From an uncultured delta proteobacterium (lineage in GTDB: Bacteria > Desulfobacterota > Syntrophia > Syntrophales > UBA2185): a stretch of 64,000 nt of DNA. Numbering within the stretch: position 1 is the stretch's first letter; each line of letters begins with the position of its first letter. Where the stretch lies: the NCBI GenBank assembly GCA_963729715.1, contig CAVSPA010000004.1:256001-320000 (forward strand), in the 5' to 3' direction. Below are positions 7,783 through 53,570 of the stretch, piece after piece. The notes under the pieces are model-generated. The model did not search any database. It was not told the DNA's origin and worked only from the letters and a program-made list of their open reading frames with translations. The position numbers and the translations under genes were made by a program.

Positions 7783-9562
7783 TCACGGCACCGGCATTGC
7801 ATACCTGCTCGCATAGCGTGCAGCCTGTGCAAAGCTCACTATCAATGGATGCTACACCTTCCTGTTTCTTTGCATTCCTCTTGACTGTCTCACTTGGCAT
7901 ATCCTCGAATTTTATCCATGAGATTGCCGGACACCCAAGACCAATACAGGCCTTGCAACCGACACACTTATCCGTATCAACTTCGAATGTTTTTCGAACA
8001 CCTTTCATTTCTCTCTTGAACAACACGCAGGCTCTTTGCGATATTACGACGGAAGCACCCGGCCTTGCCAATTCTTCCTTTAGCACCTTCCGCGTCATCT
8101 TAATATCGTAAGGATCTATTACACGCACGCTGCCTATCCCCACCGCAGAGGCCAGCTTCTTAAAATCAAGCGCCTTTGTTTTTTCCCCCTGCAGGGTATA
8201 GCCGGTAGCCGGATGGTCCTGCATGCCCGTCATGGCTGTTGTTCTGTTATCGCAAATGACAATGACTGCGTCGCTCTTATTATAGGCCATATTCAAGAGC
8301 GGTGTGATGCCGGAATGAATGAATGTGGAATCCCCGATAACACCGACAACCTTTCCTTTACCTTTATCCTTTAATGCCTTGCTCATGCCATGCGCCATGC
8401 CGATACTCGCACCCATGCAGATACATGCATGAAGGCCTTCGAGAGGCTTCATGAAAGATAAAGTGTAACAGCCTATGTCACCTGCGACAAAGGTCTTTAG
8501 TTTTCCCAGCACATAGAATAATCCCCTGTGGGGACAGCCAGGACAGAGATTTGGCGGTCTCGGCGGGATCGTCACTTCCGCCATGATTGACTTGGAAATC
8601 TTTTTACGTTTAATGGCCGTATGAATCACGCCGGGATCAAATTCATTTGTGTAGGGAAAGATGTCTTTCCCTATCACCTTGACACCCATTGCCTTGACCT
8701 GCTCCTCAATAAATGGGTCGAGTTCTTCAATCACATAGATTTTTCTCACCTTCGAGGCAAATTGACGGATGAGGCCGGAAGGGAGCGGATAAACCATACC
8801 GAGTTTCAAATACGAGAAATCGGGAAAGGCATCTTTTGCGTAATTATAAGGCATACCGGCCGTAATAATGCCGATTTCAGGATCATTCAATTCTATCTTG
8901 TTTCCGGGAAAAGTTTCAGCAAATTCTCTGAGCCTATGAAGTCTATTTTCCACCTCTATCCTTCTGACACGGGCATATGCAGGGACCATGACATATTTTG
9001 CGGCATTGATTTGTATTGCCGTGCAATCCCTGGCACTTGACAGGTCACCCAAAGATACGACGGATTTTGAATGGGAAACACGTGTAGTTGTCCGGAAGAA
9101 AACGGGTGTATCAAATCTTTCACTCAAATCGAAAGCAATCCTGATGTAATCCTTGGCCTCCTGACTATCCGCAGGCTCAATCATAGGTATCTTTGCAAAT
9201 TTGGCATAATTTCGGTTATCCTGTTCATTTTCGGAACTGTGCAGCGAAGGGTCATCAGCAGTAATGATGACAAGCGCTCCGTTAGTTCCCGTATAGCTCA
9301 GTGTGAACAGCGGGTCCGCGGCGACATTGACGCCGACATGCTTCATGACAACCATGGCCTTTGCGCCGGCCAATGCAGCCCCTATACCTACTTCCAGAGC
9401 CACCTTTTCATTGGGAGACCATTCGGCATAAACGCCGTCGTACTTTGCAAAGTTCTCGACAATCTCAGTGCTCGGTGTTCCCGGATAACCAGCTACGAAA
9501 CGGACTCCGTGTTCGAAGGCGCCTCTTGCAATACTCTCATTTCCTGACATCAATACTTTCAT
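7769..9562 (-). CDS. iorA: Indolepyruvate:ferredoxin oxidoreductase alpha subunit
   Basis: MSGNESIARG, GYPGTPS, RPPNLCPGCPH, GDIGCY, TPP motif GDSTF..DN, C-terminal 2x[4Fe-4S]; start placed at MKVLM. Confidence 0.96.
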   Translation of the reverse strand: MKVLMSGNESIARGAFEHGVRFVAGYPGTPSTEIVENFAKYDGVYAEWSPNEKVALEVGIGAALAGAKAMVVMKHVGVNVAADPLFTLSYTGTNGALVIITADDPSLHSSENEQDNRNYAKFAKIPMIEPADSQEAKDYIRIAFDLSERFDTPVFFRTTTRVSHSKSVVSLGDLSSARDCTAIQINAAKYVMVPAYARVRRIEVENRLHRLREFAETFPGNKIELNDPEIGIITAGMPYNYAKDAFPDFSYLKLGMVYPLPSGLIRQFASKVRKIYVIEELDPFIEEQVKAMGVKVIGKDIFPYTNEFDPGVIHTAIKRKKISKSIMAEVTIPPRPPNLCPGCPHRGLFYVLGKLKTFVAGDIGCYTLSFMKPLEGLHACICMGASIGMAHGMSKALKDKGKGKVVGVIGDSTFIHSGITPLLNMAYNKSDAVIVICDNRTTAMTGMQDHPATGYTLQGEKTKALDFKKLASAVGIGSVRVIDPYDIKMTRKVLKEELARPGASVVISQRACVLFKREMKGVRKTFEVDTDKCVGCKACIGLGCPAISWIKFEDMPSETVKRNAKKQEGVASIDSELCTGCTLCEQVCNAGAVIEVI

Positions 9563-9626
9563 AGACACTGTTTGTCCCTGTAGCACAAAATAGAAAAGAT
9601 CACCTCAAATAATTGTGAGCTTATCT

Positions 9627-24283: not shown

Positions 24284-26023
24284 ATGAAGGCAGCAACTTT
24301 ACCTACTACACAGTGGCGGCTATCGGAAGGCGATAGGGACATACAGGATATGCTGGCCAAGGAATTGCGGATTCACCGCATCGTCTCTCGAATATTAACG
24401 AGCCGCCGGATACTGACGCCCGACGACGCCAACAGATACCTCTATCCTTCCTTGAATAATCTGCATAATCCTCTCTTAATGAAGGACATGCAAAGGGGCG
24501 TTCAGCGGTTGATCCGGGCGATCAACGATCGCGAGAAGGTGGTTGTTTACGGCGACTACGATGCCGACGGCGTAACGTCAGTGGCTGTGCTCGTTAAATT
24601 CCTCCTTGATATCAATCATACGGTTACATATTACATCCCTGATCGTATTAAGGAAGGATACGGTTTAAACCGACCTGCAATTGACAGGATGACAGCGGAC
24701 GGAGCCACGCTGCTTATTACCGTCGATTGCGGCATGTCGGATCATGAGCAGATATCCTATGCACGCTCCTGTGGTATAGACACTATTGTATTGGATCACC
24801 ATGAAGTTCCCCAGAATCTCCCCCACGCCGTGGCAATAATCAATCAGAATCGTAAGGACTGCAATTTCCCCTTCAAGGGTCTTGCTGCTGTCGGCATAGT
24901 TTTTAATTTTCTCATTGCTCTCAGAGGAGGACTACGGAAAGACGGCTTTTGGGAAAACAAGAAATGTCCGAATCTGCGGGAATACCTCGACCTTGTGGCC
25001 CTGGGAACCATCGGCGATATCTGTCCCCTTGTGGACGAGAACAGGATATTTGCAAAAATCGGTCTCGACTTGATCACGGACTGCAAGAGGGTGGGGTTGC
25101 GGGCCTTAAAAGAAATTTGCGGCGTAGAAAATCAGGTCATAGACTCCGGCAAGGCTTCCTTCTGCCTGATTCCGAGGATTAATGCCGCGGGCCGCGTTGC
25201 ATCTGCAAATGACGCTGTCCGGCTTCTCTTGACCGAAAACATCGAGGAGGCGAGGTTAATCGCTCAGGATCTTGAGATCTACAACCGGAAGCGGCAGGCC
25301 ATGGAAAAGAATATACTAAACGAAATACTTGACGAAATTGAGCGTACGATAGATCCGGAAAAAGTCAGATCGCTTGTGTTTGCGTCAGAGAAGTGGCATC
25401 CGGGAGTCATTGGCATAGTGGCTTCAAAACTTGTGGACCGGTATTACAGACCCACTATCTTGATAAGTCTCAAAGACGGCATCGGCAAGGGTTCCGGAAG
25501 AAGTGTGGCCGATTTTAACATATATGAGGGCTTGAAAGAATGTGATTCTTTATTGTTGTCTTATGGAGGACACAGGTACGCGGCGGGGATATCTATAAGG
25601 GAAGAAGACATCAAAGAATTCTCCGGCATGCTCGAAGAGGTCATCGGCAAGGAGATTGACGTTTCTGATTTTGTTTCTCAAACCAACATTGATGCCATCT
25701 GCAGTCTCAGTGAAATAACCCACGAGCTCATATCGCAGATCGGGAGACTTGCTCCCTTCGGCAGCGGTAACCCTGAACCGGTCCTGTGTGTGAGAAATAT
25801 CAATGTCACCTCGCAGTCGGTGGTAGGCAATAACCACTTATGCATGCGTCTCACTGGTGACGGCATGTCATACAATTCCATCTGGTTCAACAAGGGTCAT
25901 TTTATCAATTTTCTTTCCGGGCCTGCGATCGATATCGCCTTCACGCCTCATATCAATAGCTGGAACGGTGTTTATGATATACAGCTCAAGATGAAAGATA
26001 TGTCAGTGCCCGCCAATCATTAA
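24284..26023 (+). CDS. recJ: ssDNA exonuclease RecJ
   Basis: GDYDADG, VDCG, DHH, PRINAAGR, GSGRS, GGH..AAG. Confidence 0.97.
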   Translation: MKAATLPTTQWRLSEGDRDIQDMLAKELRIHRIVSRILTSRRILTPDDANRYLYPSLNNLHNPLLMKDMQRGVQRLIRAINDREKVVVYGDYDADGVTSVAVLVKFLLDINHTVTYYIPDRIKEGYGLNRPAIDRMTADGATLLITVDCGMSDHEQISYARSCGIDTIVLDHHEVPQNLPHAVAIINQNRKDCNFPFKGLAAVGIVFNFLIALRGGLRKDGFWENKKCPNLREYLDLVALGTIGDICPLVDENRIFAKIGLDLITDCKRVGLRALKEICGVENQVIDSGKASFCLIPRINAAGRVASANDAVRLLLTENIEEARLIAQDLEIYNRKRQAMEKNILNEILDEIERTIDPEKVRSLVFASEKWHPGVIGIVASKLVDRYYRPTILISLKDGIGKGSGRSVADFNIYEGLKECDSLLLSYGGHRYAAGISIREEDIKEFSGMLEEVIGKEIDVSDFVSQTNIDAICSLSEITHELISQIGRLAPFGSGNPEPVLCVRNINVTSQSVVGNNHLCMRLTGDGMSYNSIWFNKGHFINFLSGPAIDIAFTPHINSWNGVYDIQLKMKDMSVPANH

Positions 26024-26078: not shown

Positions 26079-26882
26079 CTATAGCCATCTTTTCCGACGG
26101 CGATATGACTTAACGTCGTTATATGATTTCAGAGTCCCTTCGGCACCCATGCCCAGGTAAAATTCTTTTATATCGGGATTCTCGACAAGATTCTTTGCAG
26201 CATCTTCCATCACTATCTTGCCGTTTTCCATTACATACCCGTAATCCGAAATTTGCAGGGCCATATTGGCGTTCTGCTCCACGAGGACAATGCTCGTCCC
26301 CTGTTCTGCGTTTATCTTTTTGATAATCTCGAATATCTCTTTGACGATCATGGGAGCAAGCCCGAGTGACGGTTCATCCAGGAGCAAGAGGGCGGGATGG
26401 GCCATCAACGCCCTTCCCATGACTATCATCTGGAGCTCTCCTCCGCTGCAGTACCCTGCGAGCATCTTTCTCCGTTTCACTATGCCGGGAAAATAGTTAT
26501 AAACCATTTCCAGATCCTTCTTATATGGCTTCCGCCAGCGGATAGCTGTCCCGACAATAAGATTTTCCTCCACAGTCAGATATTTGAAGGGCTGGCGTCC
26601 TTCGAGAACCTGAATTATTCCTTTACGCGTGATCACCTCCGGAGCGTGATTCTGGATAGGTTGTCCATCGTACGTTATTGTTCCATCCGTCACCTTGCCG
26701 TTCTCAGGCTTGAGCAATCCCGAGATGGCTTTCAGCGTCGTCGTCTTGCCTGCGCCGTTGCTCCCGATAAGCGACGTGATGGATTTTCTCTTAACGACGA
26801 GAGACACGCCCTTGAGTACCTGGATTACGTCCGAATAAACAACGGATATATTATTGATCTCAAGAATAGTACTGTCAGTCAT
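26079..26882 (-). CDS. ABC transporter ATPase (LivF-like)
   Basis: GSNGAGKTT, SGGELQ, LLLDEPSLGLAP, VEQN; start at MTDST. Confidence 0.93.
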   Translation of the reverse strand: MTDSTILEINNISVVYSDVIQVLKGVSLVVKRKSITSLIGSNGAGKTTTLKAISGLLKPENGKVTDGTITYDGQPIQNHAPEVITRKGIIQVLEGRQPFKYLTVEENLIVGTAIRWRKPYKKDLEMVYNYFPGIVKRRKMLAGYCSGGELQMIVMGRALMAHPALLLLDEPSLGLAPMIVKEIFEIIKKINAEQGTSIVLVEQNANMALQISDYGYVMENGKIVMEDAAKNLVENPDIKEFYLGMGAEGTLKSYNDVKSYRRRKRWL

Positions 26883-26893
26883 TTGAGAATGCC

Positions 26894-27964
26894 TCAATAG
26901 GCGAAAGGCCATAGTTTAAAGTTGGAACGAATGATGCGCCACACCTCAGCAAGGCCTCGCGGTTCGAAGAGAATAAAGAGAACTATGGATGTGCCAAAAA
27001 AGAATTCTCTTAGAGGAGCGATATTCAAACCGGATTCCGTGAGCACTCCTATGTTCATCATAACGCCCGTGAGCCACCGCAACAGTTCATTTAAAAATGT
27101 TATAAAGACTGCGCCGTATATGGAGCCTGAGATACTTCCCAAGCCTCCAATGATTACCATAGCTATGTATTCAACGGAAAGGCCCAGGGTGAACGGTTCA
27201 GACGTGATACTGACCATATAATAAGCCCATATGGCGCCGGCAAAACCGGCATAAAAAGAACTGATTCCAAAAGAAAGGAGCTTATATCTGAAGAGAGGAA
27301 TACCCATGCCTTCTGCGGCCCTGTCGTTATCGCGAATAGCGATGAAGGCCCTGCCATACTTCGTCCGTATGAGATTGACTGCGAACCATATCATGACCAT
27401 GAGGCAGCAGAATATCAGAAAAAAGAAACTACGATCACTCTCCAATTCGACTCCGAAAATATTCGGCCGCGGCAGGGTTATCCCCATAGTGCCCTTCGTA
27501 AGGGTTTCCCAGTGGACTAAGGCATATTCGATGATGATTTGGCCTGCGAGCGTTGCAATTGTGAGATAGAGGCCCTTGAGGCGACCCGAAGGAATGCCGA
27601 ATATCATGCCTACCATAGCCGAGACCAAGCCCGCCACGGGCAGGGTAATGAGAAAGGGCATGTTTACCGACGTGGCCAGTATCGCGGCGGCGTAAGCCCC
27701 GACTCCTATGAAAGCCCCGTGGCCGAGAGATATCTGTCCCGCATATCCGATGAGGATATTCAGCCCTATCGCCGCGATGGACGCTATCCCCACCATGTTC
27801 AGAACATGGAGAAAGTACGGACTGACAATATAGGGCAAAACAACAAAGAGGAAGAACATGCCTATCCCCGTCCACAGCCTGCCAAAGTCTGTTTCAAAGA
27901 TGGTAATTTCCTGTTCATATCGCTCTTTATAATTGCCGCAAGTGTGGAAGTTCATTTTTTTCAT
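26894..27964 (-). CDS. ABC transporter permease (LivM-like)
   Basis: GYAGQISLGH, GLYLTIATL, GRAFIAIRDN, IIGGLGS. Confidence 0.93.
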   Translation of the reverse strand: MKKMNFHTCGNYKERYEQEITIFETDFGRLWTGIGMFFLFVVLPYIVSPYFLHVLNMVGIASIAAIGLNILIGYAGQISLGHGAFIGVGAYAAAILATSVNMPFLITLPVAGLVSAMVGMIFGIPSGRLKGLYLTIATLAGQIIIEYALVHWETLTKGTMGITLPRPNIFGVELESDRSFFFLIFCCLMVMIWFAVNLIRTKYGRAFIAIRDNDRAAEGMGIPLFRYKLLSFGISSFYAGFAGAIWAYYMVSITSEPFTLGLSVEYIAMVIIGGLGSISGSIYGAVFITFLNELLRWLTGVMMNIGVLTESGLNIAPLREFFFGTSIVLFILFEPRGLAEVWRIIRSNFKLWPFAY

Positions 27965-27971
27965 TGCCGCC

Positions 27972-28850
27972 TCACACCCTTTCAATTTCTGCGAGACCGA
28001 AAAGGCCATACGGCTTCACCATAAGTATGACCACGAGGATCACGTACGGCACAACGTCGCTTAGCGATGGTGAAATGTAGCCGCCGGTGAAGGTTTCCAG
28101 AAGTCCAATGATAATACCCCCGATGATAGCCCCGCCGATGCTGTCCAATCCGCCGAGAATGACGACGGGGAACACTTTCAGGCCGATGGCGCTGAGGTCA
28201 TGGACGTTAATGCCGTTTATGATGCCCAGAACTATGCCGCTCATACCGGCCACAAGCGCGGCAATGGCCCAGGATAAAGCAAACACCCTTTGCACATGTA
28301 CACCCAGCGAAAGGGCCGCCTTTTGATTGTCGGCGACGGACCTCATGAATATTCCCTGCGATGAGTACTTAAAAAATAATCCGAAGAGAATGAGAAACAT
28401 TATCCCGATTATGAGGGCAGCCGTATAGACAGGCGGTATGTTAATCACGTGCCACTCTATACCGAGGAATTCGGGCAGAAAATCGGGATAGGTCTGCAGA
28501 TTGCCTCCCCAAAAGAGAAGCATGAGGCCTTTAAACATCGACGCCAGTCCCACTGTCAGCATTATTACGTAGATCAGGGGTTCGCCGATAAGGGGACGCA
28601 GGAAGAAGCGCTCTATGATGAATCCGAGGATAAAGCATGCGGCAAGGGTTACCAGGAAAGCGACAACTACCGGCAATTTCACCCATGTTACCATGGCGAG
28701 AAAGAAGAAAGCTCCGAAAGCAAGCAATTCGCCGTGGGCAAAATTGAGGACGCTTGAGGATTTGAATATCATAACAAAACCCATGGCAGACAGGCCATAT
28801 AGGAATCCTATACTTATGCCGTTTATGAAGAGTTGAAGAAAAAAATTCAT
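27972..28850 (-). CDS. ABC transporter permease (LivH-like)
   Basis: LNFAHGE, RSVADN..AALSLG, ILGGLDS, KPYGLFG. Confidence 0.93.
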   Translation of the reverse strand: MNFFLQLFINGISIGFLYGLSAMGFVMIFKSSSVLNFAHGELLAFGAFFFLAMVTWVKLPVVVAFLVTLAACFILGFIIERFFLRPLIGEPLIYVIMLTVGLASMFKGLMLLFWGGNLQTYPDFLPEFLGIEWHVINIPPVYTAALIIGIMFLILFGLFFKYSSQGIFMRSVADNQKAALSLGVHVQRVFALSWAIAALVAGMSGIVLGIINGINVHDLSAIGLKVFPVVILGGLDSIGGAIIGGIIIGLLETFTGGYISPSLSDVVPYVILVVILMVKPYGLFGLAEIERV

Positions 28851-28860
28851 ACACTATCCC

Positions 28861-30810
28861 TCAGTTGAGATTAATAACTCTGACCCGCGTTTCAATTTCA
28901 CCAACCTGACCGTCCCGATACTGGATTTTTGTTTTGACATCAACCTCATCCCTGCCCGCATACATGGCCTCAATAAGCTGGAGATACAGGCCATAAATGA
29001 ATCTCCTTCGAACTTTTCCCGTTCTCGTCAGCTCTTCATCATCGGCGTCGAGGAGCTTATAGAGCAATATGAACTTGCGAACCTTCATGAGGTCCGGCAG
29101 GTTGCTATTCACCTTTCTCACCTCGTTAAGTATCAGTTCCTCAACCGCTGTCTGTTGCGAGAGGTCTATATATGTTGTGTATGGAATCATGCGCTCCTCA
29201 GCCCAATTCCCGACATTACCCATGTCTATATTGATGAGTGCAGTGATGTAAGGGCGCCCCTCGCCGAACATCACCGCTTCCTTGATATACGGACTGAACT
29301 TGAGACGCGTCTCTATGAAGTCCGGTGAAAACGCCGCCCCTTCCTTATTCTTTATAATGTCTCCTTTACGGCCGATGATCACAAGATGACCCTCTTTGTC
29401 TATGTAACCGGCGTCGCCGGTTCTGAGCCAGCCGCTGCTAAAGGCCTCTTCCGTAGCTTTAAAATCGTTATGGTAGCCGACAAAGTTTGAATCGCTCTGT
29501 ACAAGCACCTCCTGATCATCTGCAATCTTAACCAGGGTTCTCGGCAAGGGTTTCCCCACAGACTCGAGCTTGATTTCGCAATCGGGCTGGACCTGGAATA
29601 TCCCCCCTGCCTCGGTCAGGCCGTAACACTGCTTGAGATTCAAGCCGATTGCACGGAAAAAATGGATCACATCGGGACTGATGGGATGACCGCCCGTGAA
29701 GGCGCTCTTGAAACCTGCACATCCGACTCTATCAAGCAACGGCCGGTATATTCCCAATGCTGCGATACGAAGAAGAAAATTTAGATGACCGGGAACCGCC
29801 TCTCCTTTCGATTGCAGCTCGACAGCCTTCTTTCCGATTTCCACCGACATAGAGAAAAGCTTACGCCTGAGAAATCCGGCATCGTCCATTTTCACCATAA
29901 TGCGCGAAGCGAGATCTTCCCAGAATCGGGACGATGTGATGATGATCGAGGGGCCTATCTCGCGAAAGTCTTCGTCTATCGTCTCCGGCATTTCCGGGAA
30001 ATTTACTGCCATGCCCCCCAGGAGTGCCACTCCGACCCCGCACATCTGGTCAACAATCCAGGCTGGCGGAGATATTGAGATCCAGTTGTCGCCGGAAGTG
30101 ATGGGTAAGGATTCTATCCAATTCCTTGCCATTTCTATGATATTGCGATGCGACAGCATGGCGAGTTTGGAAATGCCCGTGGTGCCGGACGTCTGAATCA
30201 TAATTGCTACATTATCGCGTCTGCCCTTCTGCAATTCCCTGAGGAATAGATCCGGATTTTCACAGTCAATCTTTTCGCCCATCTCCAATAGATCGGAAAA
30301 ACTCACAAGCCATGGATTATCCCTGTATGCTCTCATACCCGTGGGATCTATGTAGATGACTCGGCGAACGTGAGACAGTCGTTCACGCGTCTCAATCAGC
30401 TTATCGACCTGTTCCTGGTTTTCCGCGATAACGTAAGCCGCCTTAATGCGGCTGAGGGCATGACATAATTCTTCGGGCACGGAAGAGGTAAATAGATTAA
30501 GCGACACCCCACCGACGGACTGGCAACCGATTTCAGAAAAGAGCCATTCCGGGATATTGTTCGTGACTATGCCGATGTTTTCCCCTCTTTTCAGCCCGAT
30601 GTTGTTCAAGCCGAGGCCTGTGTGTTTCATATAGCGGTAGTAATCGAGCCAGCTATAGGTCTGCCAAATGCCGTACGCCTTTTCTCGAATAGCCGTCGCT
30701 TTGGAGCCAAGCCGCTCCGCTTGTCTCATCAGAATCCGTGGCAGCGTATACGGGGTTACGGTTGCCCACTCTGTATCTTCCGCCTGCTTTCTATTTACCA
30801 CCGCACACAC
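28861..30810 (-). CDS. AMP-forming acyl-CoA ligase (long-chain-type family) embedded in the ABC operon
   Basis: TSGTTG..K P-loop, YGLTE, RTGDAG, IIGRK, TRTGKVRR. Confidence 0.9.
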   Translation of the reverse strand: MCAVVNRKQAEDTEWATVTPYTLPRILMRQAERLGSKATAIREKAYGIWQTYSWLDYYRYMKHTGLGLNNIGLKRGENIGIVTNNIPEWLFSEIGCQSVGGVSLNLFTSSVPEELCHALSRIKAAYVIAENQEQVDKLIETRERLSHVRRVIYIDPTGMRAYRDNPWLVSFSDLLEMGEKIDCENPDLFLRELQKGRRDNVAIMIQTSGTTGISKLAMLSHRNIIEMARNWIESLPITSGDNWISISPPAWIVDQMCGVGVALLGGMAVNFPEMPETIDEDFREIGPSIIITSSRFWEDLASRIMVKMDDAGFLRRKLFSMSVEIGKKAVELQSKGEAVPGHLNFLLRIAALGIYRPLLDRVGCAGFKSAFTGGHPISPDVIHFFRAIGLNLKQCYGLTEAGGIFQVQPDCEIKLESVGKPLPRTLVKIADDQEVLVQSDSNFVGYHNDFKATEEAFSSGWLRTGDAGYIDKEGHLVIIGRKGDIIKNKEGAAFSPDFIETRLKFSPYIKEAVMFGEGRPYITALINIDMGNVGNWAEERMIPYTTYIDLSQQTAVEELILNEVRKVNSNLPDLMKVRKFILLYKLLDADDEELTRTGKVRRRFIYGLYLQLIEAMYAGRDEVDVKTKIQYRDGQVGEIETRVRVINLN

Positions 30811-30816
30811 CTTCTT

Positions 30817-31644
30817 CTATGCACTCGCAGAATCGCCGAGATATGCCTTGATGACTTCCGGATGTTTACGAATCTCATGCGGGTCCCCCTCGGCAAGCTT
30901 CTCCCCGAAGTTCAAGACCACAATCCGCTCGGAGATGCTCATGACTACGGACATATCATGTTCCACGAGAACCATCGTTTGGCCCCATGCGCGGTTCATC
31001 TCTGTCAGGAAGCGCACCATGTCTTCCTTTTCTTCGAGGTTCATTCCCGCGAATGGTTCATCCAATATCAATAGTGCGGGTTCCAAGGCCAGTGCCCGAC
31101 CGAGTTCGACTCTCTTCATCAAACCGTAGGGCAATGACCCCACCCTCTTCTTTCTGATGGCCTGGATCTCGAGGAAATCTACCAGCTCTTCGATGACACG
31201 TCGTTGATGGACCTCTTCCTTCCGTACGGATGGTGAAAAAATACTGGCGCCCGCAATTCCATACTTACAGTGATTGTGGCGCGCAAGAAGCATATTCGAT
31301 AGAACAGTCATGCCCGGAAAGAGCTCGATGTTTTGAAAGGTCCTGCCAATTCCTATGCGGACAAGATGATGAGGGGAAAGATTTGTTATGTCCTTCCCGT
31401 TAAATACGATGCGGCCCTCTTGCGGCCTGTAAAAGCCGGTCATGCAATTCAACAGGCTCGTCTTTCCGGCGCCATTCGGCCCGATAACGGCCACCAACTC
31501 TCCCGTACGCACGGACATATCAACGTCATTGAGCGCCTTGACGCCGCCGAAGCTTAAGGAAAGGTTTCTTACCTCAAGCTCTGCAGCCTTCTCAACCGGA
31601 CTTCTTGATGCGAATATAGCAGGTTTTCCTCGATATGCTTTCAT
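30817..31644 (-). CDS. ABC transporter ATPase (LivG-like)
   Basis: GPNGAGKT, RTFQN, LPYG..KRVELGRAL, VEHDM. Confidence 0.93.
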   Translation of the reverse strand: MKAYRGKPAIFASRSPVEKAAELEVRNLSLSFGGVKALNDVDMSVRTGELVAVIGPNGAGKTSLLNCMTGFYRPQEGRIVFNGKDITNLSPHHLVRIGIGRTFQNIELFPGMTVLSNMLLARHNHCKYGIAGASIFSPSVRKEEVHQRRVIEELVDFLEIQAIRKKRVGSLPYGLMKRVELGRALALEPALLILDEPFAGMNLEEKEDMVRFLTEMNRAWGQTMVLVEHDMSVVMSISERIVVLNFGEKLAEGDPHEIRKHPEVIKAYLGDSASA

Positions 31645-31657
31645 AAATCCAAAGTTG

Positions 31658-32863
31658 CTATTTCAATAACTTGATCTTTTCCTTCAATGGATTAAAGAAA
31701 TTTGTCAAAGGGGTGAAGGAGCCGTCCTCGCCCACCTTTACGATTCTCGCCTTGAATGATGCCCCGTGATCGGTTTGCGTATACGTAACATTGGGGACGA
31801 GGCCGCCGAAATCCTCGTTCCTGAAAGACTCCATTGCCTTATTGATCGTTTCTCTATTGATCTCTTTATATTTTTGATTGGCGCGGATAAATGCCCTCTC
31901 CATGATCATGCCGACAACGATACCTTCCCAGTACGATGCATCGAATTTTTCGACCGTCCTGTAACGCTTCCACAACTCAGTCATTACCTTAATGCCCCGA
32001 CTCTTGTCAGAGGGAACGCCTCCGGGAAACTGGATACGCAGCCTGTCCCTTATAAGGCCTTTGCCGAGCTTGAAGAAATCCGGGTCCGTCGACGTCCACG
32101 TGCCGAGGAATACGGGGTTATAATTTATACGGTCCGCGCTCTTAAAGGCCGTGACAATGGCCGCAGGAAGCATTTGCATGAATATGTATTCCGCACCTTT
32201 TCTCTGCAAACGGAGCAACTCAGTGGTCAAATCCACAGTCTTGGGAGGAAATTCTTCGATGGCCACAATATTCATATTGATCTTCTTTGCGTATTCTCTA
32301 CAGGGCTCGTGAATGGAGCGGCCATAGGCATTATTGTATGTAAGAAGACCCACCTTGGGCGCCTCCTTTCCTTTGTGGATGGCGCGTATATATTCCAGTA
32401 TGGCATAACTGTCCATCCGATAGCTCCCAAAGGGGAGATACATATAACTCACCGGGGGTTCAAGGAGTTCCCAGCTTGTCGAGTAATTGATGGTGGGGAT
32501 CCTGTATTGCTGAATGATCGGTTTGACTGCCAGGCCTTCTCCGGCTCCCCACGTGGCCATCATATCCACGCGATCCTGGATGGCAAATCTCTTGGCGGCG
32601 GCAACGGCCTCCGGAACCTTGTATTCCGTATCGACGAGGATCATTTCAATCCTGTTTCCACCGACGCCCCCCTTCACCTCGTTCACGTAACGGAAATAAT
32701 CCTGCTGTCCCCTTGCATGGAACTGTCCCCACGAGGATGCAGGACCGGTCATGTTTATTGCCGCACCAACCTTTATTGTATTGGCGTGAAGAGCTGTATT
32801 AGAGAGACAGACAGCGAGACCTATTATGGCTGAGCAGATACTTACGGTAGATCCTGTTTTCAT
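31658..32863 (-). CDS. ABC substrate-binding protein (LivJ/K-like type I PBP; aromatic/organic acid-binding type likely)
   Basis: Signal peptide, IKVG..MTGP, N.KGGVGG, DTEYKVPEA; SD GGAGG. Confidence 0.9.
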   Translation of the reverse strand: MKTGSTVSICSAIIGLAVCLSNTALHANTIKVGAAINMTGPASSWGQFHARGQQDYFRYVNEVKGGVGGNRIEMILVDTEYKVPEAVAAAKRFAIQDRVDMMATWGAGEGLAVKPIIQQYRIPTINYSTSWELLEPPVSYMYLPFGSYRMDSYAILEYIRAIHKGKEAPKVGLLTYNNAYGRSIHEPCREYAKKINMNIVAIEEFPPKTVDLTTELLRLQRKGAEYIFMQMLPAAIVTAFKSADRINYNPVFLGTWTSTDPDFFKLGKGLIRDRLRIQFPGGVPSDKSRGIKVMTELWKRYRTVEKFDASYWEGIVVGMIMERAFIRANQKYKEINRETINKAMESFRNEDFGGLVPNVTYTQTDHGASFKARIVKVGEDGSFTPLTNFFNPLKEKIKLLK

Positions 32864-32882
32864 ACGTGTCCTCCATCAAAAT

Positions 32883-32911
32883 AAAAAAGGCCTGGAAAAT
32901 TCACGGCCTTT
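32883..32911 (-). terminator. Second terminator hairpin of the Phe leader
   Basis: Minus strand AAAGGCC-gtgaattttcca-GGCCTTTTTT followed by ATTTTG. Confidence 0.65.
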
Positions 32912-32914
32912 CGC

Positions 32915-32953
32915 AAAAAAAAGCCGTCGGCAGTATTTGGTCTGCCCACGGCT
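32915..32953 (-). terminator. Attenuator terminator of the Phe leader
   Basis: Minus strand AGCCGTGGGCAG-accaaata-CTGCCGACGGC then T8. Confidence 0.9.
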
Positions 32954-32973
32954 ACATTTAAGAAAATCTCAGG

Positions 32974-33048
32974 TCATGAGCGCGGCAGGCAGACCTCACT
33001 AAAGAAACCAAAAAAGACAAAAAAACTTTCTGCCTGCATGTGCGTCAT
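32974..33048 (-). CDS. Phe-rich attenuation leader peptide MTHMQAESFFVFFGFFSEVCLPRS (24 aa)
   Basis: SD AAGGA before ATG; 6 Phe codons in 8; overlaps antiterminator arm; terminator follows. Confidence 0.88.
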   Translation of the reverse strand: MTHMQAESFFVFFGFFSEVCLPRS

Positions 33049-33086
33049 ATCCTTTATTCCGAGTGCTTATCTACAGTATACTCAGC

Positions 33087-33115
33087 CTTATAAAGCCAAT
33101 TGAGACCTGTGTCAA
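33087..33115 (-). promoter_or_regulatory. Sigma70-type promoter of the Phe leader/ABC operon
   Basis: Minus strand TTGACA-17 bp-TATAAG, about 40 nt before the leader ATG. Confidence 0.75.
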
Positions 33116-33134
33116 GAAAAAATCTTCACTAATT

Positions 33135-34499
33135 TCATTCTGCCCCAAGCTTTTCTATCCTGTAACGCAGTGAATCAAAACTCACTTGGAGAATCTCAGC
33201 AGCCTTGGTCTTGGAGCCCTTCGCTTTCTTAAGAGCTTTTTCTATGAGATGCTTTTCGTACTTTGCCACTTCTTCGTTGAGGTTCAAGCCGTCATCGGGT
33301 ATATCAGTATCAGCAAACCCTCTCACATCCTGGAGGCTGCCTGCCAGATGAAGGTTCTCCGGGAGGATTATGTTAGATGTCTCGAGGGCAACACTTCGTT
33401 CAATAATATTTTCAAGCTCCCTCACGTTTCCTGGAAAAGGATATTTCATCAGAAGCTCCAGTGCATACGAAGATATTGTCCTGACTTCTTTACCGAACTC
33501 CTTAGAACATTTTTCGATGAAATGCCTTGTTAAGACCGGTATATCCTCTCTCCTCTCTTTCAAGGGCGGAATGTTTATAGGTATGACATTTAGGCGAAAA
33601 TATAGATCTTCCCTGAAGGAACCGTCTCTAACTTTTTCTTCGAGATTCTTGTTCGTCGCCGAGATGATTCTGACATCGATCTTCTTCTCTTCCGCCCCCC
33701 CTACCCTTCGAAATGTCTTTTCCTGAACGACTCTGAGAAGTTTTACTTGAAGAAGCGGCGGTAAGTCACCTATCTCGTCGAGAAATATAGTGCCGCCGCG
33801 TGCGATCTCAAAGAGCCCTGATTTATCTCCGTAGGCGCCTGTAAATGCGCCTTTCACGTAGCCGAACAATTCGCTCTCGAGGAGGCTTTCGGGAACGCCG
33901 CCGCAATTAATCACTTCAAAAGGCATATTCTTTCTCGGACTATTTTCATGGATGGCCCTCGCTACAAGCTCTTTGCCTGTTCCGCTCTCCCCCAAAATCA
34001 GGACATTGGTGGGCGTTTCCGCCACCTTCTTAATGAGTGAATACACCTTAAGCATTCCCTTGCTCTTGCCGATCATATTTCCGAAAGATACCGCATCTTC
34101 CACTTCTTTAATGAATAAAGCATCTTCTCTTTTTACACCTTTTTTATCGAGGGCACTGCTGATAATGGTCTTTATATCTTCGATGTTGAAGCCCTTCTCG
34201 ATATAGTCATAGGCACCTTCCTTCATGGCCGAGACAGCCGTCTCAGGAGATGCGTAAGCGGTAATTAATATTACCATCGCCTCTTGGGTAATCTCTTTGA
34301 CCGCTTTCAAAAATTCTATGCCGTCTACCTTAGGCATCTTCAAGTCAGTGAGGATAAGATCAAATTTCTCTTTTTTGCAACGGTTCAGCGCTTTTGTTGC
34401 GTCAGGTGCGGTTGTCACATCATACCCTTCCCTGGTGAGCATGATCTCGAGAAATTCCCTTATTCCCTCATCGTCATCCACTACTAAAATTTTTGCCAC
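33135..34499 (-). CDS. pilR: Sigma54-dependent response regulator (PilR-like)
   Basis: REC, GESGTGKE, GAFTGA, FPGNVREL, Fis-type HTH; follows PilS-like kinase. Confidence 0.82.
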   Translation of the reverse strand: MAKILVVDDDEGIREFLEIMLTREGYDVTTAPDATKALNRCKKEKFDLILTDLKMPKVDGIEFLKAVKEITQEAMVILITAYASPETAVSAMKEGAYDYIEKGFNIEDIKTIISSALDKKGVKREDALFIKEVEDAVSFGNMIGKSKGMLKVYSLIKKVAETPTNVLILGESGTGKELVARAIHENSPRKNMPFEVINCGGVPESLLESELFGYVKGAFTGAYGDKSGLFEIARGGTIFLDEIGDLPPLLQVKLLRVVQEKTFRRVGGAEEKKIDVRIISATNKNLEEKVRDGSFREDLYFRLNVIPINIPPLKERREDIPVLTRHFIEKCSKEFGKEVRTISSYALELLMKYPFPGNVRELENIIERSVALETSNIILPENLHLAGSLQDVRGFADTDIPDDGLNLNEEVAKYEKHLIEKALKKAKGSKTKAAEILQVSFDSLRYRIEKLGAE

Positions 34500-34538
34500 G
34501 TACTCTCTCCTTGTGAAGAAAACCGATGATCACGGAAT

Positions 34539-36221
34539 TTAACTGCTTCCTCCAATCAAGGGCAAAGATACCATACAGATTGTCCCTTTTCCGACGCCCT
34601 TTCTAATCAAAATTCTTCCCGTGTATCCTTCGATGATTCTATTGACTATTGCAAGACCAAGGCCTGTTCCTCTCTCCCTCGTCGTGAAAAACGGTTCAAA
34701 TATCTTGTCCAGATATTTATCATCAATGCCATAACCCGTGTCACTCACCCGTATCTCCAGGGATTCACCGAGTGCACCGTCATATATCTTTCGCGTTTCT
34801 ACAGAGAGCTCGCCTCCTTCAGGCATAGATTGAACGGCATTCATGACAAGGTTCCATATAACTTCTCTTATTTCCGTCCTGTTGGCATAAACACCGAGAT
34901 TATCCGAGAATTCAAGACGAACCTTAATATCATCGTTCCAATCAGGCAGATACTGAATAGATTCTATCACGCCTTCGATGATTTCTTTCATGAAAACCGT
35001 CTCGCGTTCACCCGGCGCAGGTCTTGCGAGCAATAGAAAATCCTTTATGACGTGATCCAGCTGATCCTTGCCCCTGAGAATGATCTGCATGAGCTTTTCA
35101 TCTACCTCGGATAATTGCAGATCCCTCTTCAAAATCTGGATCGATCCGCTCAGAGAGGCAAGGGGATTTCTCATCTCATGTGCAAGACCAGCCGCCATTT
35201 CACCGATAATGGCCAGTCTCTTACTCTTTTCCAAGGCCTCTTCCATTTCTATCAGAGAAGTGATGTCCTGGAAAATTACAATGTCGCCTATCCTTTTTCC
35301 CTTGCTGTCTTTGAGAGTCGAAACCAGGCAGCTCAATATAAGCCGATTGTTCTTTTCACGGATAAATTCTATATTATATCTGTTTTTCGATGATCGTTTG
35401 TCATCATCTTCTTTGGTCTTCTCACGCACTTCGGCGAATCCGGGAAATACTTCGACGATATTTCTATTTTCGACGTCGGCAAAAGCAAATCCGGAGATTT
35501 CCTCAGCGGCTCTGTTAAAGGATTTTATTCTCCCCTGACGGTTGATCGTCATGATACCGGTCTCAACTGACTCGATGATACTCCTGTGCAATAAATCAAG
35601 TTGATCGAATGCAGTCTCTTTTTCGGCAAGAAGCGTCCGCACCTTTCTTTCCTGCTCAACTACGAAGCTCGCAAGGAGGCCGATAATGTAAAAAGACAGC
35701 AGGTGGACAAATATTCGCGAAAAGACATATCCGGCACCCATATCATAGTCATGAACAGCCAGCGCGTTTATGGGATGGATGACACCGTAATACTCCAAAT
35801 CCAGCAGCAAACCATATAGAATGCCCGAGGCTGAGGCGATGATGAGTCCGCCCCGCCTTTCCAAGAACAAGACCGAATATATGATGACCAAAGGATAGAA
35901 AACAGAATATATACTGCTAATTCCACCCGTTATGTACACAAGGAATGTTATTAAGGCTGCATCGGTGAGGGCCTGGATATATATGTTTAATCTATTCTTC
36001 TTGACGAACTTCAGAAGGAGAACATAAATTAAGGAAAGGAAGTAGGTTATCGCGCAAAGTGCGTAAAGCGATGTCAGCGCTTTCTCGGGAAATATTTCCG
36101 TTTTTTGGAACTTGATGAATGTTGTTACCATTAACAGGAAGGTAACGATTGCCACCCTCGACAGCATCAACCAGCGAAGTCTCGTTTCTATACCTTCTTC
36201 CTGCAATAATTGCTCACTCAT
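34539..36221 (-). CDS. pilS: Membrane sensor kinase (PilS-like)
   Basis: RLRWLMLSRV start, multi-TM region with TGGISSIYS, PAS, AHEMRNPL, PFFTT..GTGLGL. Confidence 0.82.
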   Translation of the reverse strand: MSEQLLQEEGIETRLRWLMLSRVAIVTFLLMVTTFIKFQKTEIFPEKALTSLYALCAITYFLSLIYVLLLKFVKKNRLNIYIQALTDAALITFLVYITGGISSIYSVFYPLVIIYSVLFLERRGGLIIASASGILYGLLLDLEYYGVIHPINALAVHDYDMGAGYVFSRIFVHLLSFYIIGLLASFVVEQERKVRTLLAEKETAFDQLDLLHRSIIESVETGIMTINRQGRIKSFNRAAEEISGFAFADVENRNIVEVFPGFAEVREKTKEDDDKRSSKNRYNIEFIREKNNRLILSCLVSTLKDSKGKRIGDIVIFQDITSLIEMEEALEKSKRLAIIGEMAAGLAHEMRNPLASLSGSIQILKRDLQLSEVDEKLMQIILRGKDQLDHVIKDFLLLARPAPGERETVFMKEIIEGVIESIQYLPDWNDDIKVRLEFSDNLGVYANRTEIREVIWNLVMNAVQSMPEGGELSVETRKIYDGALGESLEIRVSDTGYGIDDKYLDKIFEPFFTTRERGTGLGLAIVNRIIEGYTGRILIRKGVGKGTICMVSLPLIGGSS

Positions 36222-47511: not shown

Positions 47512-47540
47512 TTGACAAGACATCCATGCACTGGTATAAA
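47512..47540 (+). promoter_or_regulatory. Sigma70 promoter of the trp operon
   Basis: TTGACA-17 bp-TATAAA with TG extended -10. Confidence 0.8.
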
Positions 47541-47570
47541 AGCACAAAATATCGGAAGGACAGTCTATAA

Positions 47571-47642
47571 TTGAACTACTTATTTTTAACAATCATCAAC
47601 TGGTGGTGGCAGAATCCAATGCAGGGGTTTGTCCACCGCTGA
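47571..47642 (+). CDS. trpL: Trp attenuation leader peptide MNYLFLTIINWWWQNPMQGFVHR (23 aa, TTG start)
   Basis: SD GGAAGGA; three tandem TGG at 47601-47609; precedes terminator and trpE. Confidence 0.9.
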   Translation: MNYLFLTIINWWWQNPMQGFVHR

Positions 47643-47664
47643 TTTATTTCGTTGACTAAAGCAT

Positions 47665-47700
47665 AGCCGTGGAGACCTCGTCGGACTCCGCGGCTTTTTT
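47665..47700 (+). terminator. trp attenuator terminator
   Basis: AGCCGTGGAG..CTCCGCGGCT stem with T run; antiterminator arm TCCACCGCT at 47632-47640. Confidence 0.9.
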
Positions 47701-47713
47701 GTTATTGGAGCAC

Positions 47714-47750
47714 AAGAAAGGCCGCAATTGTAAGCGGCCTTTCTTATTTT
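47714..47750 (+). terminator. Second terminator-like hairpin of the trp leader
   Basis: Perfect 12-bp stem AAGAAAGGCCGC-aattgtaa-GCGGCCTTTCTT then ATTTT. Confidence 0.7.
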
Positions 47751-47789
47751 AGCTGAAGCACAAAAGTAGAACGGAAGGAACTTTCGAGA

Positions 47790-49286
47790 ATGTACTACCC
47801 GGCCTTTGACCAGTTTGTGAAATTTGCCGAAGAGGGAAACCTCATCCCCGTGTACAGGGAGATACTCGCCGACATAGATACGCCGGTCTCCGCCCTCATG
47901 AAGCTCAGTACGAAAGCCCATGTCTTTCTTCTGGAGAGCGTAGAGGGGGGCGAGAAATGGGGGCGCTATACATTTCTCGGTTCAGACCCGCGCATTGTCT
48001 TCAAGGTCAGGGGTGACGATGTGCTGATATCTGAAAACAGCAAGAGCAGAGTCCAGAGACACGAAGGGAATCCTCTCAGATATCTGAAGGATTTATTGAA
48101 CTCCTATCGGCCTGTTCTCGTGGATGGGCTGCCGCGGTTTTACGGCGGCGCCGTGGGATTTCTCGGCTACGATATGGTTCGCTATTTTGAAAAAATCCCT
48201 GCCCGTGCTTTGAACGACGTGAAGATGGACGATGCAGTCTTCCTCATCACGGATACGCTGATTGTCTTTGACAATATCAGGCACACGATCAAAGTGGTCT
48301 CATGCGCGGCAACCGAAGGCACCGCGTCCCTCAAAGATGTTTACGACGAGACCATCGATAAGATAGACAGGCTGATAGCAATCATCAGAGCGCCTGTTGA
48401 AGCAACGGAGCGCTACAGAAAGGTGGAAAACGAGGTACCCCTCGGGTCTAATATGTCGGCGGAAGACTTTAAGGCAACGGTCGAGAAGGCCAAGGAATAC
48501 ATCGTCGCCGGCGACATCATACAGGTCGTTCTGTCCCAGCGTTTTCAGGCGAAGAACGGGATAGACCCGCTCGACCTCTACAGGGCGCTCCGTTATGTGA
48601 ACCCCTCCCCTTACCTCTTCTTTCTCAAGCTTGATGAGACGTTTTTGATAGGCTCCTCGCCTGAGGTCATGGTCAGGCTTGACGAAGGAGTCGCGGAACT
48701 CCGGCCCATTGCAGGAACTCGCAGAAGAGGAAGAAACGAGCAGGAAGACAGGCAGTTTGCCCATGAGCTCCTCGAGGATCCGAAAGAAAGGGCCGAACAC
48801 GTGATGCTTGTTGACCTAGGGAGAAATGACCTGGGAAGAATAGCACGGACAGGCAGTGTGCAGGTCAATCAGCTTATGGTCGTGGAGCGGTATTCACACG
48901 TCATGCATCTTGTCACGAACATCCAGGCGCAATTGGCCCCCGGAAAAGATTGTTTTGATCTCCTTGCGGCATCGTTTCCCGCCGGCACACTATCCGGTGC
49001 GCCTAAGGTCAGGGCCATGGAGATCATCGATGAACTGGAGCCGACCAGACGCGGCATTTACGGGGGAGCCGTCGGTTACTTCAGTTACACGGGCAATATG
49101 GACCTCTGCATAACCATCCGAACCATGCTGGTCAAAGACGGAAAGATTTTCATACAGGTGGGCGCCGGCATCGTAGCCGATTCCGACCCGGAGAAGGAAT
49201 ATCAGGAAACGGTAAATAAGGGCGAAGCGATGATGCAGGCCATACGCCTTGCCGCGTCCGGTTTCGAACTGAGAAAGAATATCTGA
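47790..49286 (+). CDS. trpE: Anthranilate synthase component I
   Basis: LLES, NPSPY, GSSPE, PIAGT, AEHVMLVDLGRND, GAPK. Confidence 0.97.
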   Translation: MYYPAFDQFVKFAEEGNLIPVYREILADIDTPVSALMKLSTKAHVFLLESVEGGEKWGRYTFLGSDPRIVFKVRGDDVLISENSKSRVQRHEGNPLRYLKDLLNSYRPVLVDGLPRFYGGAVGFLGYDMVRYFEKIPARALNDVKMDDAVFLITDTLIVFDNIRHTIKVVSCAATEGTASLKDVYDETIDKIDRLIAIIRAPVEATERYRKVENEVPLGSNMSAEDFKATVEKAKEYIVAGDIIQVVLSQRFQAKNGIDPLDLYRALRYVNPSPYLFFLKLDETFLIGSSPEVMVRLDEGVAELRPIAGTRRRGRNEQEDRQFAHELLEDPKERAEHVMLVDLGRNDLGRIARTGSVQVNQLMVVERYSHVMHLVTNIQAQLAPGKDCFDLLAASFPAGTLSGAPKVRAMEIIDELEPTRRGIYGGAVGYFSYTGNMDLCITIRTMLVKDGKIFIQVGAGIVADSDPEKEYQETVNKGEAMMQAIRLAASGFELRKNI

Positions 49287-49297
49287 GGGAGCAACGC

Positions 49298-49885
49298 ATG
49301 ATTCTGATGATCGACAATTATGATTCCTTTACATACAACCTCGTTCAATATCTCGGCCAACTCGACCAGGCGGTTGCAGTCTATCGCAATGACGAGATAA
49401 CCCTAAATGACATAAGAAACATCGCCCCCGAAGCCATCTTTCTCTCCCCCGGCCCGTGTACGCCGAAAGAGGCGGGGATCACTGTCGATGTCATCAGGGA
49501 ATTTCATAAATCAATACCTATCATGGGGGTATGTCTCGGGCACCAGGCCATCGGCTATGCCTTCGGAGGCAATGTGGTCAGGGCAGACAGGCTCATGCAC
49601 GGGCAGACCTCCCCCATCATCAACGATGGAAAGACGATCTTCAAAGGCCTCCCCAATCCCTTCATCGCCGGTCGCTACCACTCCCTGCTGATTGAGCAAG
49701 CCTCGCTGCCCTCATGTCTCATGATCAGTGCGAGGACAGAGGAAGGAGAAATAATGGGCGTGAGGCATCAGGAGTATGCTGTGGAGGGGATACAGTTCCA
49801 TCCTGAATCCATCCTGACACCGCAGGGAAAACGGATATTGAGGAATTTTTTGGAGTTAATTATAAAAAAGGAGAGACTGCAATGA
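49298..49885 (+). CDS. trpG: Anthranilate synthase component II
   Basis: [27 protein letters not shown]. Confidence 0.96.
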
Positions 49886-50892: not shown

Positions 50893-50905
50893 ACGGATTG
50901 TCAAC

Positions 50906-51682: not shown

Positions 51683-51701
51683 AGAACAGAAAGAACGAAT
51701 A

Positions 51702-53544: not shown

Positions 53545-53570
53545 TTCGTTCAAAATGGGGAGATGCTATT

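Follow-up and report, generated by a model that had tools for sequence, protein, structure and literature searches.

The window, a stretch of 64,000 nucleotides from an uncultured member of the Syntrophales (contig CAVSPA010000004.1, positions 256,001 to 320,000), carries on its minus strand a putative phenylalanine (Phe) attenuator (33115-32864), located between an upstream regulator gene and the first gene of a six-gene operon for an ATP-binding cassette (ABC) importer and an acyl-coenzyme A (CoA) ligase. The operon lies on the same strand and begins at 32863 with the gene for a HAAT-type substrate-binding protein of 401 aa (31658-32863; Peripla_BP_6, Pfam E 7e-47), followed by genes for a LivG-like ABC ATPase (30817-31644; Pfam, with an NCBIfam score of 263 bits vs a cut-off of 362), an embedded acyl-CoA ligase of 649 aa (28861-30810; Pfam AMP-binding and AMP-binding_C_3) and three proteins detected with both Pfam and NCBIfam, the BPD_transp_2 permeases LivH-like (27972-28850) and LivM-like (26894-28009) and, from the last gene of the operon, a LivF-like ABC ATPase (26079-26912). 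All five components of a full HAAT (LIV-type) importer have Pfam hits, and the unit is closed by the convergent recJ (24284-26023). The operon proteins stay below the cut-offs of the specific NCBIfam models: the binding protein scores 43.5 bits with the LivJ/LivK model NF011933 (cut-off 477), and the 649-aa ligase scores 253 bits with its best model, FadD11 (NF038343, cut-off 950), so that the identity of the ligase is secure only at the level of the AMP-binding superfamily domains. In routine annotation, such an operon would be labelled a transporter of branched-chain amino acids or long-chain fatty acids.

The original prediction, made from the letters of the DNA, had placed a TTGACA-17-TATAAG promoter, a 24-codon leader with 6 Phe in 8 codons and a set of competing helices ending in a U8 tail in front of this operon. 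The promoter, which is of the sigma-70 type, and the leader are both present on the minus strand. The -35 hexamer TTGACA (33115-33110) is conserved as CTTGAC(A/T) in all 21 aligned upstream regions, which come from several families, and the -10 hexamer TATAAG (33092-33087), separated from it by 17 nt, recurs as TATAxx with the same spacing in most of them. The leader open reading frame (ORF), MTHMQAESFFVFFGFFSEVCLPRS, starts 39 nt downstream of the -10 hexamer with the ATG at 33048 and runs for 24 codons to the TGA at 32976-32974, and its codons 9-16 (TTT TTT GTC TTT TTT GGT TTC TTT, 33024-33001) encode 6 Phe in 8 codons. A simple promoter/terminator scan of the region reported neither the promoter nor the terminators because its rules demand a T at position 6 of the -10 hexamer and an unbroken stem.

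Sequence reading and folding recovered each of the predicted helices, 1:2, 2:3 and 3:4 with the U8 tail, on the minus strand. Segment 1 (GCAGGCAGA, 33037-33029) forms a 9-bp helix with segment 2 (GGTCTGCCTGC, 32995-32985), which can pair alternatively with segment 3 (AGCCGTGGGCAGACC, 32953-32939) in a helix of -25.7 kcal/mol (z -3.3). Terminator 1 (32953-32915), for which both folding and covariation speak, consists of segment 3, here AGCCGTGGGCAG(ACC), a loop and segment 4 (CTGCCGACGGCT, 32933-32922), with T8 at 32922-32915; this 3:4 hairpin has a folding energy of -21.3 kcal/mol (z -3.9), which none of 200 shuffles equalled. Helices 2:3 and 3:4 are mutually exclusive, both using 32949-32939. 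Folding also revealed a second terminator that the original prediction had lacked (AAAGGCC...GGCCTTTTTT, segments 5 and 6 with a U6 tail, 32911-32883; -9.7 to -11.7 kcal/mol), which sits just ahead of the ribosome-binding site GGAGG of the first structural gene (32874-32870, kept in the alignment; ATG at 32863). When a ribosome is placed on the first Phe codon, it covers segment 1 but not segment 2, and the constrained minimum free energy (MFE) fold has helix 2:3 and lacks terminator 1; when it is placed at the stop codon it covers segment 2, and the constrained fold has terminator 1. The position of the stop codon, 9 nt past segment 2, agrees with this fold, since a terminating ribosome would mask segment 2. 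Short variants of the leader in other loci end in FFFFD-stop immediately 5' of segment 2, placing the stop codon directly ahead of it.

Leaders were compared in an alignment of 31 loci and in a wider set of 80. Small ORFs were counted in 81 loci, of which six with less than 250 nt of upstream DNA were dropped, leaving 75, and the picks were corrected by hand at L007, L008, L012, L019, L023 and L031 and in the group L053, L062, L066 and L086. The closest loci come from metagenome-assembled genomes of Syntrophales, Syntrophaceae and Smithellaceae. A search with the intergenic DNA matched 30 of 41 related genomes, and beyond the genus the DNA match was limited to roughly 33036-32870. When 70 leaders were used to build a covariance model (R1), it gave matches at E<=1e-3 in 141 of the 151 Syntrophales genomes sampled, with a best E<=1e-12 in about 110; of the 116 genomes with a completeness of 90% or more and a contamination of 5% or less it matched 108, and in a sample of the phylum 64 of 151. 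Among the high matches outside the Syntrophales, only one (L121) was a Phe leader on the same operon, and the other 15 loci inspected have leaders rich in Tyr, Phe and Trp.

A search for conserved Phe-rich small ORFs upstream of orthologous operons, proposed as a check on the prediction, bore it out: each of the 75 loci has such an ORF ahead of the binding-protein gene, in which a stretch of 9 codons contains four or more Phe; five or more are present in 67 loci and six or more in 46, whereas among 4000 random 336-nt segments of the window's genome these numbers were reached by 96 (2.4%), 7 and 1, respectively. The leader consensus is M-x(5-12)-FFxFFxFF-(S/G)-x-VCL(P/L)RS-stop, in which the x positions vary (V, A, S, T, G, Y, C, I) while Phe is kept. 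The Phe codons of the 75 leaders are 379 TTT and 79 TTC, with synonymous changes between the two, and the periodicity of the T-rich block, (TTY TTY NNN)x3, is kept in both the 31-locus and the 80-locus sets. In many relatives the leader start has a well-spaced Shine-Dalgarno sequence, for example AAGGAG-7-ATG (L019) and GGGAG-7-ATG (L016).

In all 31 loci, the leader is followed by the binding-protein gene, and the six-gene order is kept in all 18 long loci from the Syntrophales and all 11 from other orders (two loci are fragmentary), with the acyl-CoA ligase embedded in the operon in 29 of 29. Upstream of the leader, in contrast, neighbours change. In the window, a PilS-like kinase (6TM_PilS, PAS and HisKA domains) and a sigma-54 response regulator are encoded at 33135-36221 on the minus strand, their best models being AtoS/AtoC at scores below cut-off; the regulator itself, a PilR/AtoC-like protein of 454 aa (33135-34499), ends at 33135. 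The pair is syntenic with leader and operon in most families and lies upstream of the leader in 24 of 31 loci (three are too short for a verdict), whereas L023, L027, L028 and L030, each with about 2.5 kb of upstream DNA, and several further loci have other genes there and keep the leader. Because the leader persists where the upstream gene differs, the hairpins must be more than ends of the regulator genes, and this candidate was ruled out. Inspection by eye, with no formal scan, revealed no sigma-54 promoter between the PilS/PilR-like genes and the operon, and a TGGC-N..-GC arrangement at 33098-33084 was rejected on account of wrong spacing. In one genome (G001; L010 and L031), two copies of the PilS-PilR-leader-operon region with about 80% identity lie on different contigs, which may reflect a strain mixture or bin contamination rather than a duplication.

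These data bear on a first alternative, in which the small ORF is untranslated and its Phe codons are accidental, the hairpins being terminators of the upstream regulator, a conserved small RNA or a leader that binds a protein or ligand. In its favour, no terminator belonging to the PilR-like gene itself precedes the leader, and T-rich DNA readily gives Phe codons. Against it stand the (TTY TTY NNN)x3 period with an in-frame start and a stop past segment 2 in 75 of 75 loci, a block of at least 5 Phe in only 0.2% of random segments, the presence of the leader where the upstream gene differs, and the fact that paralogous leaders have W codons instead on trp operons, and Y/F/W codons on aro operons (see below). 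A further point against it is the lack of an Rfam family match: a scan of 32000-34000 (E<=10) returned no significant family, Phe_leader gave no match, and the only signal was His_leader at 19.1 bits (E 3.7), below the gathering score of 49. We regard this explanation as highly improbable; the leader and its helices are confirmed as real and far above chance.

The second proposed check, for covarying stems in orthologous upstream regions, gave a graded answer, with compensatory changes in terminator 1 and one-sided changes only in helix 2:3. In the terminator state (1:2, 3:4 and 5:6), ten pairs are changed on both sides among the 31 aligned sequences; helix 3:4 is 95% paired, helix 1:2 is paired in 73% of cells, with 4 pairs changed on both sides, and helix 5:6 in 75.5%. 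Among the 70 sequences, helix 3:4 is 94.7% paired, and two-sided changes affect 6 of its pairs and 32 cells, a cell count reached by 0 of 500 shuffles, and RNAalifold predicts the terminator 1 hairpin independently. Helix 2:3 is paired in 97.4% of cells in the 31 sequences and in 94.9% in the 70, compared with 31-44% for slid controls. Its support consists of this conservation and of one-sided compatible changes, which is weaker evidence than covariation, although one-sided variation would be expected of a segment that is held by two partners. A parsing of all four terminator arms by regular expression worked in only 20 of 107 sequences and was not counted as evidence, because the pattern itself forces near-complementarity.

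Paralogous attenuators in the same genome (G000) indicate what such leaders sense. Model R1 matched, with 48 bits, a leader at G000:C6:210961-211100 that has the same architecture and encodes MNTNGLIKGFYYWNYYFLLVCLLLGRN, with F/Y/W codons (GFYYWNYYF); the attenuator and its operon span G000:C6:210869-219667 (locus L137, 370-9167), and the operon is aroF-aroB-pheA-aroDE-aroA-aroK-aroC-tyrA. This leader has two terminators, all four arms of which read GCCATGG/CCATGGC instead of GCCGTGG/CCACGGC. In the window itself, a trp attenuator on the plus strand (47513-47790), with TTGACA-17-TATAAA at about 47513 and a WWW leader at 47571-47642 that has a TTG start, forms a first hairpin AGCCGTGGAGACC..CCGCGGCTTTTTT and a second AAAGGCCGC..GCGGCCTTTC ahead of trpE, G, D, C, F, B and A (47790-54368, plus strand; all above or near NCBIfam cut-offs). 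A leader rich in Val, Ile and Leu precedes ilvB at G000:C5:673085-672900 on the minus strand, with the terminator GCCGCGGGCCCC..CCGCGGCTTTTTT. The aro, trp and ilvB attenuators share with the Phe leader the promoter style, a GGTCTGCC-type segment 2, tandem terminators and GCCGTGG/CCACGGC terminator stems, and differ from it in their codons (F/Y/W, WWW or V/I/L) and in targeting biosynthetic operons. From these three cases it follows that leader codon content tracks the operon product. No pure-Phe leader was found elsewhere in the window's genome. The genome-wide small-ORF scan was very noisy, and only hits with a second line of evidence were kept from it.

The geometry of ribosome-mediated attenuation that the original prediction had recognised thus holds, in the conserved promoter, start, Phe codons, stop and helices and in constrained folds that switch as expected. 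In E. coli, pheL-pheA and pheM-pheST have a Phe-codon leader ORF, helices 1:2, 2:3 and 3:4 and a U-tract, with read-through upon shortage of Phe-tRNA. The element described here resembles them in its short leader ORF with a Phe run, its three helices and its U-tract. Unlike them, it has segment 1 upstream of the Phe codons and two tandem terminators, it occurs in the Syntrophales rather than in Gammaproteobacteria, with no sequence or model similarity, and it precedes an operon for an ABC importer and an acyl-CoA ligase instead of a biosynthetic or synthetase gene. We conclude from the comparative sequence data that the element very probably is a working Phe attenuator and that the operon is most likely induced by Phe starvation; the latter follows from the geometry and fits the match between codons and products in the paralogous leaders.

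In the mechanism that we propose, transcription would start at the TTGACA-17-TATAAG promoter, which lies immediately past the end of the upstream regulator gene, and a ribosome would translate the 24-codon leader. With ample Phe-tRNA, the ribosome would reach the stop codon and cover segment 2, segments 3 and 4 would pair and transcription would end at U8, with the second hairpin and its U-tail catching transcripts that escape terminator 1. When Phe-tRNA is scarce, the ribosome would stall on FFxFFxFF and cover segment 1, leaving segment 2 to pair with segment 3. Segment 4, freed by 2:3, could then relay the signal: together with the U-tract (ACGGCUUUU) it would pair with AAAGGCCGU of segment 5, and this 4:5 pairing would disable terminator 2, so that the operon is transcribed. 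Helix 4:5 is 92.6% paired in the 31 sequences (-10.7 kcal/mol) and a perfect 10-bp stem in some relatives. Also in favour of the relay, GCCATGG/CCATGGC replaces GCCGTGG/CCACGGC in all four arms of the paralogous aro leader. A precedent exists in the his leader of Salmonella and E. coli, in which six segments pair as A:B, C:D and E:F or as B:C and D:E; the Phe leader likewise has six segments and the proposed relay from 2:3 to 4:5, although, unlike in his, its middle hairpin 3:4 has a U-tract and is a terminator. Three related aromatic leaders of other orders (L123, L129, L135) are his-like in that their first, middle hairpin lacks a U-tract, and in these the signal must therefore be passed on, as in his. 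We give the 4:5 relay even chances of being correct.

We then considered what the operon takes up. Among solved structures, the binding protein (model with a predicted local distance difference test score of 89.5) comes closest to the valine-bound Thermus protein 3lkb (E 8e-34; template modeling (TM) score 0.83-0.87) and next, by fold, to the fatty-acid binder 4n03; its similarity to the R. palustris binders of aromatic acids is weaker (E 1e-6 to 1e-7), and the specificity predicted from sequence and fold is ambiguous. The R. palustris proteins are COG0683-type binding proteins that bound aromatic or fatty acids, not Leu, Ile or Val, and one of them adjoins a p-coumarate-CoA ligase, according to the available part of the report (PMC3223731). 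The present operon resembles these CouP-type HAAT systems in linking a COG0683-type ABC system to a CoA ligase, and differs from them in that they are catabolic and, as far as that part of the report extends, without a described leader peptide (PMC3223731).

Further ligases are linked to the operon or to leaders of the same type. A PaaK-family ligase of about 415 aa adjoins the operon on the same strand in 17 of 29 long loci (11 of 18 from the Syntrophales, 6 of 11 from other orders), often at a distance of 13-80 nt behind livF and in one case immediately before the gene for the binding protein instead; the best solved relatives of these PaaK-type proteins are the phenylacetate-CoA ligases 2y27 and 4r1l (E ~1e-42). 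A FadD/4CL-type ligase follows livF in 4 of the 11 other-order loci. Among ten extra R1 matches examined, five (L161, L162, L163, L164, L166) are second Phe leaders with tandem terminators, such as MKSFLNNFAGGFFGFFSRVCLRCFID and MSMTAISTADSYFCFFRRVCLLCS, ahead of a monocistronic gene for a 516-aa FadD/4CL-type acyl-CoA ligase, the neighbours of which offered nothing informative.

One possibility is that the same attenuator controls an importer of Phe itself, or of aromatic amino acids, the embedded ligase being unrelated or accessory. To induce an importer for the amino acid that is in short supply would be the simplest logic, Phe is among the cargoes of the LIV-I/LS system of E. coli, and the closest solved relative of the binding protein, 3lkb, is an amino-acid binder with valine (E 8e-34, TM 0.83-0.87). 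However, free Phe needs no CoA activation, and an acyl-CoA ligase lies within the operon in 29 of 29 long loci; further PaaK-type and FadD-type ligases are linked to the operon or have their own Phe leader; and the second-best fold of the binding protein is that of the fatty-acid binder 4n03, with only 43.5 bits vs 477 for the LivJ-type model. We therefore hold import of Phe to be a less likely but live alternative, roughly a one-in-five prospect. Still less probable, in our estimate about one chance in ten, is a system for the general uptake and activation of fatty or hydrophobic acids for growth, in which the Phe codons gauge general starvation or the energy state. Such a system would suit a ligase of the FadD11 or long-chain type and a binding protein with 4n03 as second-best fold match, Syntrophales live on fatty and aromatic acids, and Phe is among the costliest amino acids; yet the leader codons in the same genome match the products of their operons (F/Y/W for aro, W for trp, V/I/L for ilvB), the pure-Phe block is kept across the order, and the PaaK family points to aryl-acetates, not fatty acids.

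A third reading, close to the substrate proposed in the original prediction, connects the operon to the aryl-acid route, by which phenylacetate is converted to phenylacetyl-CoA and, by reductive carboxylation, to phenylpyruvate and then Phe; anaerobes can use aryl acids in this manner. The route reportedly runs via an indolepyruvate oxidoreductase in methanogens and rumen anaerobes, as is said to have been described by Porat and colleagues in 2004 and by Allison in 1965. To our knowledge, neither a transporter nor a dedicated ligase has been defined for it in bacteria, and neither a transporter nor attenuator control is known to have been described for it. An iorA paralog is present in 25 of the 151 Syntrophales genomes, and in 18 of the 25 a small ORF containing WW(W) lies upstream; these small ORFs have WWW or WWWW and are often followed by a terminator (loci among L210, L213 and L220-L246). 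At L210 and L213 (G093 and G066) the protein was confirmed as IorA, with a PaaK-family gene just upstream and iorB following. These arrangements suggest that the iorAB paralog is under Trp-starvation control. The window has genes for IorB (201 aa) and IorA (605 aa) at 7177-9586 on the minus strand (iorA 7769-9586), about 16.5 kb from the operon and on the same strand, where they directly follow a gene for a tetratricopeptide repeat (TPR) protein; IorA scores 710 bits with TIGR03336, above the cut-off of 650.9, and IorB is adjacent.

Because acid-activating enzymes of three kinds occur under Phe control and a reductive carboxylase under Trp control, aryl-acid salvage fits better than import of free Phe. 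As in the aryl-acid route, iorAB and PaaK-family genes are present here, although the link is made by gene neighbourhood and leader codons alone. We therefore consider an aryl-acid substrate plausible, with independent circumstantial support of the guilt-by-association kind, and regard as the most likely function of the operon, with chances of about even, the uptake and CoA activation of a phenylacetate-type aryl-carboxylate precursor of Phe. The indolepyruvate-type ferredoxin oxidoreductase encoded by iorAB would then carboxylate the CoA-activated acid to phenylpyruvate, and transamination would yield Phe. Somewhat more tentative, and slightly short of an even prospect, is the wider proposal of an attenuator-wired aryl-acid salvage regulon in the Syntrophales, in which Phe leaders control the importer and the ligases, Trp leaders control iorAB, two terminators are coupled by a relay, and Phe and Trp are rebuilt from phenylacetate and indoleacetate.

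Several observations weigh against one part or another of this reading. With regard to the leader, the GGA/AAGGA sequence resembling a Shine-Dalgarno element before the first leader ATG is badly spaced in the window's genus. With regard to the helices, neither 2:3 nor 4:5 has two-sided compensatory changes, 4:5 (-10.7) and 5:6 (-9.7) are nearly equal in the window sequence, the MFE fold with a stalled ribosome still shows terminator 2, and terminator 2 is missing from some lineages. With regard to the substrate, the binding protein has a valine-bound structure as its nearest solved relative, as described above; six operon-linked PaaK-type proteins score 167-192 bits vs a cut-off of 646 and 191-224 vs 700 (models TIGR02155 and NF041878); the window's genome and genus have no operon-linked PaaK-type ortholog, only paralogs with 33-35% identity; no leader was found upstream of the window's iorA, nor upstream of the second IOR-like gene of the genome; the genome has the full de novo route including pheA; and, apart from the lineage of L121, the orthologous operons of other orders (binding protein 57-67% identical) have a Phe leader in 0 of 9 cases. 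Taking these points into account, we favour as the best overall explanation, with somewhat better than even confidence in the whole of it, a Phe-specific, ribosome-mediated leader-peptide transcription attenuator on the six-gene operon.

In literature searches outside subscription papers, neither this element nor Phe attenuation of an operon of this kind was found described. Many predicted attenuators precede ABC transporter genes, and the main text of the paper reporting this names neither Syntrophus nor phenylalanine (PMC2965389). The element would represent a classical mechanism applied to a target of a new kind, extending leader-peptide attenuation to Syntrophales that are uncultured and to an operon for uptake and activation, and adding a two-terminator design. 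Proteobacterial attenuators were reportedly the subject of a comparative study by Vitreschak and colleagues in 2004. Most of the Syntrophales genomes sampled have this operon type, as do several other families in the phylum sample, and the pure-Phe leader links it to phenylalanine supply, so that regulation provides a functional label where homology fails. Together, the Phe leaders on further ligases and the Trp leaders on the iorAB of relatives make an old observation on aryl acids testable with named genes. If the salvage proposal is correct, names can be put to the genes for uptake and activation that have long been missing from the aryl-acid route, and energy-starved syntrophs would rebuild Phe and Trp from fermentation end products, sparing the cost of the shikimate pathway. 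The family of paralogous attenuators (Phe, F/Y/W, Trp and Val) should also be useful for studying how a switch is re-aimed by codon change.

Some further leaders came to light during this work. Val/Ile/Leu-rich leaders on ilvB were also listed for L207, L209 and L214, and in G045 (L207) a Val-rich leader lies ahead of a pyruvate:ferredoxin oxidoreductase gene (the first 430 aa score 690 bits). In the window's genome, a small ORF encoding IIIIIGIII at G000:C5:670555-670460 on the minus strand, about 2.4 kb further downstream than the ilvB leader, is followed by a hairpin; it was seen in the noisy scan only and may be another leader, for Ile. Leaders with Y/F/W codons are widespread in other orders of the phylum (L122-L136), some of them with a first hairpin that lacks a U-tract.

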